Origin: Escherichia coli
GTDB lineage: Bacteria; Pseudomonadota; Gammaproteobacteria; Enterobacterales; Enterobacteriaceae
NCBI RefSeq assembly: GCF_003334785.1
Contig: NZ_QOWV01000034.1
Strand: one strand, 5' to 3'
DNA: 9,131 bases
Under the pieces are notes generated by a model, which had not been told where the DNA came from, did no database searches, and saw nothing but the letters and a program-made list of their open reading frames with translations. Within the stretch, counting starts at the first letter, position 1. Every line of letters begins with the position of its first letter. This document shows positions 7,195 to 7,325 of the stretch, piece by piece. The position numbers and the translations under genes were made by a program.

Positions 7195-7325
7195 TTTTAT
7201 ATCCTTTACATCACCAATTTTTACGTCATTGAGTAAACTACAGGTTTGATAAAACCAACTCTGTTCAGGTGGGCAAATTCAGTGTACCACTTCACCAATA
7301 ATCCAATATGATGACTGCTATAGAT
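7195..7325 (-). promoter_or_regulatory. Intergenic region between the 373-aa gene and qatA; probable location of the qat operon promoter and qatA RBS
   Basis: 131-bp AT-rich gap, the only non-overlapping junction in the 8447->2635 gene string. Contains AAGGAT SD for qatA. I could not pick a convincing -35/-10 pair by eye. Confidence 0.3.

Follow-up and report, generated by a model that had tools for sequence, protein, structure and literature searches.

A mosaic spacer with a probable IS911-family scar lies upstream of qatABCD in an Escherichia coli defence island

Results

Gene organisation of the qat island

The DNA analysed here is a stretch of 9,131 nucleotides from Escherichia coli (RefSeq assembly GCF_003334785.1, contig NZ_QOWV01000034.1), hereafter the window, in which five genes follow one another on the minus strand. 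In the direction of transcription, these are orf373 (7326–8447), named for its product of 373 amino acids, qatA (5410–7194), encoding a KAP-family NTPase, qatB (4658–5410), the QueC-like qatC (3357–4676) and qatD (2635–3360), encoding a TatD-family nuclease. Full-length PADLOC matches for all four Qat proteins (QatA, 1133 bits; QatB, E 2.3e-130; QatC, E 1.1e-140; QatD, E 5.8e-97) confirm the order QatABCD on one strand, and because the QatA match spans the full profile (residues 1–593 against 593 profile positions), the start of qatA is correct. The junctions within the cassette all overlap, by 1 nt between qatA and qatB (TAATG), by 19 nt between qatB and qatC and by 4 nt between qatC and qatD (ATGA). 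Between orf373 and qatA, the ORF coordinates leave a spacer of exactly 131 nt (7195–7325, minus strand). A first-pass annotation, made from the letters of the window, had described this spacer as the only non-overlapping junction in a five-gene minus-strand string, with overlaps at every junction downstream of it; the ORF coordinates bear out both descriptions, and the RefSeq annotation of E. coli CFT073 shows an identical gene set that agrees with the layout of the window.

The spacer is AT-rich, as the first-pass annotation had stated, with a GC content of 0.344 (A44 C18 G27 U42 when written as RNA) compared to 0.44 for the window and 0.43–0.465 for the qat genes; however, this property is not specific to the spacer, as orf373 (0.331) and the other two intergenic stretches (0.348 and 0.370) are similar. 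Since the spacer is no lower in GC than these neighbours, its AT-richness belongs to the whole orf373 side of the island. A gap of this size before the first gene of the cassette is not unusual either: in 31 of 34 other Qat loci, qatA and the closest ORF upstream of it (counting ORFs of 90 aa or more) are at least 90 nt apart, and the upstream non-coding DNA of those 34 loci is mostly AT-richer than qatA. Qat loci seem as a rule to have an upstream region of their own.

QatABCD was defined in E. coli NCTC9009 (PMC13376578). The QatC encoded in the window (3357–4676) is only distantly related to the two QatC proteins with solved structures, scoring 188–219 bits against NCTC9009 QatC (PDB 9VLK; 188 bits) and a second QatC (PDB 9ZEE). 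The CFT073-type Qat, carried by about 4% of complete E. coli genomes, belongs to another subtype than the Qat that was tested. Because the NCTC9009 Qat is distant and of a different subtype, its activity is not informative on the expression of the allele studied here.

On the far side of the cassette, an IS3-family element occupies positions 130–1386 of the window (orfA 130–456, orfB 453–1343, with the end ...CCCGGGGCGGTTCA near 1386). In CFT073, the SLATT gene follows a 'nucleotide-binding domain' gene, of which the element has left only about the final 115 nt, so that the SLATT gene (1507–2082, NCBIfam SLATT_6) is without a partner in this strain. At the opposite end of the window, an ORF of 126 aa (8686–9066, minus strand) is, according to RefSeq at the same locus, a pseudogene of a truncated 'VasL domain-containing protein' of type VI secretion, so the defence genes sit among decayed T6SS and CdiA fragments. 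Damaged Qat cassettes also occur among carriers of the locus, including an internal stop in qatA (B771, locus L001), ISKpn26-associated loss of qatA–qatB (MINF_1A, locus L047), a truncated qatA beside an IS110 fragment (C8, locus L050) and an IS1 insertion (TUM9757, hit H23).

orf373 encodes a remote homologue of Avs8B

The orf373 product has no match in Pfam, NCBIfam or PHROG. A weak PADLOC match to PD-Lambda-4_B (E 3.6e-6) is confined to residues 209–288 in the C-terminal part of the protein; comparison with Avs8B family alignments using hhalign extended the similarity to nearly the whole protein (95.5%, E 1.5e-8, 270 columns). On this profile evidence, orf373 encodes a remote and apparently full-length homologue of Avs8B (PD-lambda-4_B). 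An Avs8A STAND NTPase gene is absent from the position immediately upstream of orf373, where 238 nt of non-coding DNA are followed by the VasL fragment; a canonical Avs8A–Avs8B pair is present in GE3. Avs8B is reported not to be needed for Avs8 defence, and no function is known for it (bioRxiv 10.1101/2025.07.02.662641).

In Citrobacter, Brenneria and Photorhabdus, qatA is immediately preceded by a full-length Avs8B gene (E about 1e-180), and the Rahnella gene at this position is 87–92% identical to these; the genes lie at 1964–2896, 1908–2873, 1885–2910 and 1954–2874 of loci L010, L011, L026 and L039, respectively. The next gene upstream of Avs8B is not Avs8A-like in Brenneria and Rahnella. 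In E. coli, the corresponding position is taken by a family member only ~23% identical, against ~90% identity for QatA.

Within orf373 (7414–7465, minus strand), a 9-bp unit that encodes AEV, GCTGAGGTT, is repeated in tandem and in frame, with five perfect copies (5.8 according to TRF). The copy number is 14 in C8, 19 in MINF_1A, 24 in CFT073 and 61 in CU42ET-1, and the lengths of the locus in other genomes vary in steps that are multiples of 9. Among database homologues of orf373, many are 'partial' at contig ends, probably due to this variable-number repeat breaking assemblies. In E. coli JX2 (locus L049, 6501–7433), a Citrobacter-type Avs8B-like ORF, 99.6% identical to that of L010, is situated between qatA and an ABC-three-component system but is missing as a gene from the RefSeq annotation, which lists only a 57-nt pseudo fragment.

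The upstream region of related Qat loci is absent from E. coli

The closest relatives of the window's QatA, at 89–92% identity, come from Xenorhabdus, Citrobacter, Brenneria, Photorhabdus and Rahnella. Like the E. coli locus, these loci have a gap (90–147 nt) between qatA and a same-strand upstream ORF, and they share with it the Shine-Dalgarno motif TAAAGGATA and the 5' coding sequence of qatA; all sequence upstream of about −16 is, in contrast, unrelated to that of E. coli. The five relatives have in common an upstream stretch of ~100–130 nt that is absent from the E. coli window, and in the alignment only the last 12–16 nt before the qatA ATG can be matched, consistent with a blastn comparison of the Citrobacter-type and E. 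coli loci, in which similarity begins 12 nt before the ATG. Since only TAAAGGATA...ATG can be aligned, the E. coli allele lacks the upstream region of its relatives, an absence that is notable given how regularly Qat loci seem to have one of their own (31/34 loci). A position-weight scan of the stretch shared by the relatives (L010, L011, L026, L039 and L007; ~130 nt, including CTTGAATAGACCTTGCCATGGATGATTTGGA) revealed no common strong sigma-70 site.

The proposal of the first-pass annotation that the spacer is the regulatory region of qat therefore holds in part: the spacer is the sole place outside the genes for a dedicated promoter, but it is not an evolved or conserved qat control region, as the relatives differ and an IS relic occupies the site.

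The spacer is a mosaic containing an IS911-family relic

Dissection of the spacer into segments of distinct affinity leaves us with little doubt that it is a mosaic junction, in which an IS911-family scar occupies the place of the upstream region found in the relatives. Reading along the minus strand from orf373 towards qatA, the first 31 nt (7295–7325) are a trailer that belongs to the orf373 module; CU42ET-1 has the identical stretch, with an intact IS after it. In the window, the trailer is followed by a relic (7247–7294) consisting of the left inverted repeat and subterminal palindrome of an IS911-family element (IS3 family), with its tip, TGAAGTGG, at 7294. A segment of 36 nt of uncertain origin (7211–7246) comes next, and the spacer ends with the Shine-Dalgarno region of qatA, TAAAGGATA (7195–7210), the sole part of the spacer that is homologous to other enterobacterial Qat loci.

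The relic was recovered by nhmmer with a profile of six IS911-family left ends (E 4.9e-11), giving an alignment of 48 nt from 7294 to 7247, within an envelope reaching 7227, that is exact to the profile consensus at 40 of the 48 positions. It starts with the terminal 5'-TG required of an inverted repeat of the IS3 family and IS911 group, and when aligned from 7294 downward to annotated IS911-family elements it reads TGAAGTGGTACACTGAATTTGCCCACCTGAACAGAG, compared to TGAAGTGGCACACTGAATTTGGCCACCTGAACAGAG in IS911. Searching complete E. coli genomes with the spacer region using blastn returned short matches of 41–49 nt, covering window positions 7296–7256, that adjoin IS3-family transposase genes, and the relic stretch also matches 2353 plasmid records. 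In intact IS911-family elements, the transposase gene lies on the same strand and begins ~73 nt in from the tip, and the relic therefore points inward to qatA.

The relic shares with the left inverted repeat of IS911 the terminal TGAAGTGG, the subterminal palindrome and the orientation of ends that precede orfA, and differs from it at nt 9 (T), at nt 22 (C) and in the palindrome, which has diverged. The palindrome reads GGTGA-TATGC-TCACC in IS911 and GGTTT-TATCA-AACC in the relic, with both arms changed; its retention with other bases in both arms fits descent from a functional but divergent relative within the IS911 family. With up to 3 mismatches allowed, no further copy of the repeat and no matching right end were found anywhere in the window, nor does a transposase gene (orfA or orfAB) follow the relic in the window, where qatA starts 100 nt inside the tip. 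With neither a right end nor a transposase gene in the window, the relic is a solo remnant, not an intact element. A composite transposon carrying Qat was considered and rejected, as the window contains no second IS end, and so was a fuller IS copy identical to the relic: its sole apparent match, in MINF_1A, is the same locus with the ISKpn26 deletion.

The relic possibly extends further, to about 7218. The segment 7211–7246 may comprise a degenerate IS leader and orfA start, reading CTCAATGACGTAAAAA compared to CTCCAATGAAAAAAA in IS911; here the nhmmer envelope supports an IS origin only as far as 7227, and MAFFT alignments are suggestive but weak. No significant matches to 7211–7246 were found by blastn outside Qat loci among complete E. 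coli genomes and plasmid records. The segment contains a mini-ORF of two codons, ATG ACG TAA (7229–7221, minus strand), 66 nt inside the IS tip, which may be a vestige of an orfA start, IS911-family orfA genes starting with ATGAAAAAA... at nt 73.

The junction in other E. coli genomes

Among 5426 complete E. coli genomes, 240 records (239 genomes, about 4%) carry the locus. The same 240 records were retrieved with or without the relic in the query, so that no relic-free 'empty site' was detected in this set (n=5426). Two further arrangements place a boundary at the tip of the relic. In B771, the one genome among the 5426 with this arrangement, Qat and the spacer up to 7295 are joined to a CdiA (VENN) fragment, with the left flank switching exactly at the tip (7294/7295). 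In CU42ET-1, an orf373 homologue with the same trailer of 29–31 nt is followed by an intact IS911-family element, and Qat is absent; as this element lacks a target duplication, it marks a rearrangement. The change of flank at the tip in B771 and the presence of an intact IS at essentially the same point in CU42ET-1 mean that the relic is a real IS boundary.

The two sides of this boundary are separate modules. The GC content steps from 0.33 in orf373 to 0.43–0.465 in the qat genes, and orf373 occurs without Qat both in Xenorhabdus bovienii and in Z1323MEC0001, where a lone copy is 92% identical and the similarity covers 7317–8505, corresponding to the gene and its predicted promoter.

Two histories fit these observations. 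In one, the IS served as the vehicle that joined a Qat/SLATT module to the orf373 module. In the other, the IS entered a pre-existing spacer of ~50 nt and then decayed, as suggested by TTGG on either side of a 77-nt stub, together with TGATGT, resembling an inverted-repeat tip, after the stub; the hypothetical junction before insertion would then be GGATTATTGGTGATGTAAAGGATA. TTGG precedes the tip at 7298–7295 and recurs at 7217–7214, with no right end to anchor a target-site duplication of 3–4 bp. With no relic-free allele detected in the 5426 complete E. coli genomes, either order of events would fit.

The TTGG positions belong to a longer motif, TTGGTGA(A/T)GT, with three copies on the minus strand (7298–7289, 7217–7208 and 7154–7145) that are spaced by 81 and 63 nt around the qatA start; the window holds no other match, and 0.05 would be expected. 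A three-copy family of 10-mers arose in 3 of 500 shuffles (about 0.6%) of a 200-nt region. The first copy consists of flank and IS tip, the second lies at the edge of the Qat-homologous DNA, and the third is conserved ancestral qatA coding sequence (FGEV) that is also present in the relatives. The repetition may be due to target duplication, to an IR-like target or to chance.

Transcription signals in and around the spacer

A consensus scan of the minus strand of the spacer found no sigma-70 site, and the best score in a position-weight scan of the same strand was 6.0, a score that 48% of random 126-nt windows also reach. The first-pass annotation, which could not find a convincing pair of −35 and −10 elements by eye, is thereby reproduced. 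Many genuine promoters escape consensus scans for sigma-70, above all where acquired DNA is AT-rich. The best match, TTGCCC-16 nt-TGg-TTTTAT (7249–7276, minus strand; score 6.0, no better than chance), lies in the relic at the position where IS911-family ends have TTGGCC-16-TGaTATGCT, presumed to be a weak inward promoter (pIRL), and has a T in place of A at position 2 of the −10 element. This IS911-family site is of the same kind, and in the same place, as the extended −10 promoter that lies just inside the left inverted repeat (IRL) of IS2 (PMC3299598).

A second candidate, TGgTACACT (7281–7289, minus strand), resembles an extended −10 element and corresponds to IRL nt 6–14. In IS911, a −10 motif in the IRL pairs with an outward −35 in the right inverted repeat (IRR) across a junction of 3–4 bp (PMC9330008); since the IRR of the CU42ET-1 element carries its −35, TTGACC, 6 nt from the tip, we infer that the −10 of the junction promoter (Pjunc) lies at IRL nt 9–14. 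This position reads CACACT in IS911 and TACACT in the relic, the relic having a T at nt 9 where the IS911-family ends examined mostly have a C. Compared to the IS911 promoters, the relic would thus have a degraded −10 in its pIRL equivalent and an improved −10 position in its Pjunc equivalent. No usable −35 was found upstream of TGgTACACT. The pattern TGnTAnnnT occurs once on the minus strand between 7150 and 7450, and eight times in the window as a whole.

The spacer shows no sign of a terminator. No terminator-like sites were found between 6900 and 9131, against 1.7 in shuffled sequences, and the predicted fold of the spacer RNA (MFE −25.7) is no better than that of shuffles (−30.2 +/- 3.4; z +1.3). 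The RNA has more G than C (27 versus 18) and would for that reason not be rut-like, although sequence alone leaves room for Rho-dependent termination. With QatC being QueC-like, a preQ1 riboswitch was among the elements sought using Rfam covariance models, which gave no match in the spacer up to E = 5, and a known RNA element or riboswitch was rejected on this basis.

Upstream of orf373, the consensus scan predicted a promoter, TTTAAA-18-TAGAAT (8475–8504, minus strand), with a position-weight score of 8.0. It is just included in the similarity between the window and Z1323MEC0001, which reaches 8505. orf373 itself has a strong Shine-Dalgarno sequence (AAGGAG), a GTG start at 8447 and a conserved N-terminus. 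A literature search returned no mapped transcription start for this locus and no usable CFT073 TSS data set; the structural papers on Qat used pBAD or pET constructs and do not discuss promoters.

Discussion

Expression of qatABCD

An IS911-family element very probably lay just downstream of orf373 in the past, and its left end remains, pointing to qatA and fused to the last ~16 nt (the Shine-Dalgarno region) of the qat cassette. Because the relic is fused to these last ~16 nt of the cassette, the upstream region of the relatives is absent. Together with this mosaic, IS-scarred spacer, we lean, by a small measure, towards a model in which qatABCD is expressed mostly through read-through from orf373, with the IS relic perhaps adding weak transcription. 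A five-gene transcript would start upstream of orf373 (promoter 8504–8475) and continue across the spacer; for translation, qatA would rely on its own Shine-Dalgarno sequence and qatB–D on coupling across the overlaps. Weak additional transcription might come from the IS-derived TGgTACACT (7289–7281) and TTGCCC-16-TGgTTTTAT (7276–7249). Read-through from the 373-aa gene had been offered by the first-pass annotation as an alternative, and it is a live one: the spacer has no terminator hairpin, folds no better than shuffles (z +1.3) and has more G than C. Read-through appears the most likely route because the spacer lacks a terminator and orf373 has a recognisable promoter and Shine-Dalgarno sequence. 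Which promoter drives qat, and how its transcription divides between read-through and internal promoters, we infer from these signals.

It is less probable, though a real contender, that the main qat promoter lies in the spacer and was supplied by the IS, either as TGgTACACT acting as an extended −10 without a −35 or as the pIRL equivalent, so that qatABCD would form a transcription unit of its own. The relic is directed inward at qatA, most Qat loci have their own upstream non-coding region, and precedents exist in the −10 motif of the IS911 IRL with its weak inward promoter (PMC9330008) and in the extended −10 of IS2 (PMC3299598). The T at IRL nt 9 gives TACACT after TGg, in the sole TGnTAnnnT within 300 nt on the minus strand, and TGgTACACT could be a genuine start site, which would count against read-through; however, about 0.1 such patterns are expected by chance in 131 nt, TACACT has no usable −35, the pIRL equivalent lacks the critical A at position 2 of its −10, and promoter scores are at chance level. 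The endogenous inward promoter of IS911 is, moreover, reported to be weak, at about 40-fold below the junction promoter (PMC9330008). As with the IS-supplied promoters of antibiotic-resistance genes, a cargo operon is immediately preceded by an IS end directed into it, here an operon that lacks its relatives' upstream region; those cases, in contrast, mostly involve outward-facing promoters or −35 boxes of intact elements (PMC9330008), whereas the candidate here is an inward promoter of a truncated element.

The first-pass annotation had also suggested that the island is bound and silenced by H-NS, which would leave qat cryptic in laboratory conditions whatever its promoter. This we regard as rather unlikely, and since silencing is compatible with either promoter model, it is not an alternative to them. 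H-NS prefers AT-rich acquired DNA, and the typical E. coli genome averages a GC content of about 0.51. Against this value, the GC content is 0.33–0.37 across orf373 and both flanking intergenic regions, falling to 0.275–0.29 over 7501–8000 inside orf373, which resembles the AT-rich islands subject to xenogeneic silencing; the qat genes, however, are only moderately AT-rich (0.43–0.465), and our literature search returned no paper linking Qat to H-NS.

A further reading, which we consider improbable, takes an Avs8B-family gene and qatABCD as one functional, co-transcribed five-gene unit of the Enterobacterales, with the spacer left after an IS landed inside it and the relic perhaps now supplying part of the promoter activity. 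An Avs8B-family gene precedes qatA in E. coli as well as in Citrobacter, Brenneria, Photorhabdus and Rahnella; however, the latter four represent one island type, so that at most two independent juxtapositions of Avs8B and Qat can be counted. Obligate linkage of orf373 to Qat was rejected, as the Xenorhabdus bovienii homologue stands alone. With at most two juxtapositions and a homologue that occurs alone, a functional link between Avs8B and Qat is a low-probability but interesting lead.

Finally, that the spacer is a native, conserved Qat regulatory region with an ancestral promoter or operator is highly improbable: Qat loci do generally have at least 90 nt of AT-richer non-coding DNA before qatA, and the three TTGGTGA(A/T)GT copies around the start of qatA might conceivably serve as operators, but the alignment with five close relatives, whose common upstream stretch is absent here and whose similarity starts 12–16 nt before the ATG, rules out a conserved native promoter, at least 48 nt of the spacer are IS-derived, and of the repeat copies one consists of the IS tip with its flank, while another belongs to the coding sequence of qatA and is present in the relatives.

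Implications

None of this would surprise a specialist: IS remnants are familiar at island junctions, and IS-derived promoters are likewise well established. The IS911-family scar upstream of qatA is ordinary biology, of modest practical use. That use lies in the design of expression constructs, since cloning a CFT073-type Qat with the 131-bp 'native promoter' fragment may capture only an IS scar, and the relevant promoter may be located some 1.3 kb upstream, before orf373. The relic also coincides with the rearrangement breakpoints of B771 and CU42ET-1, which remove Qat or place it in a new context, and it marks how two defence-island modules became adjacent.
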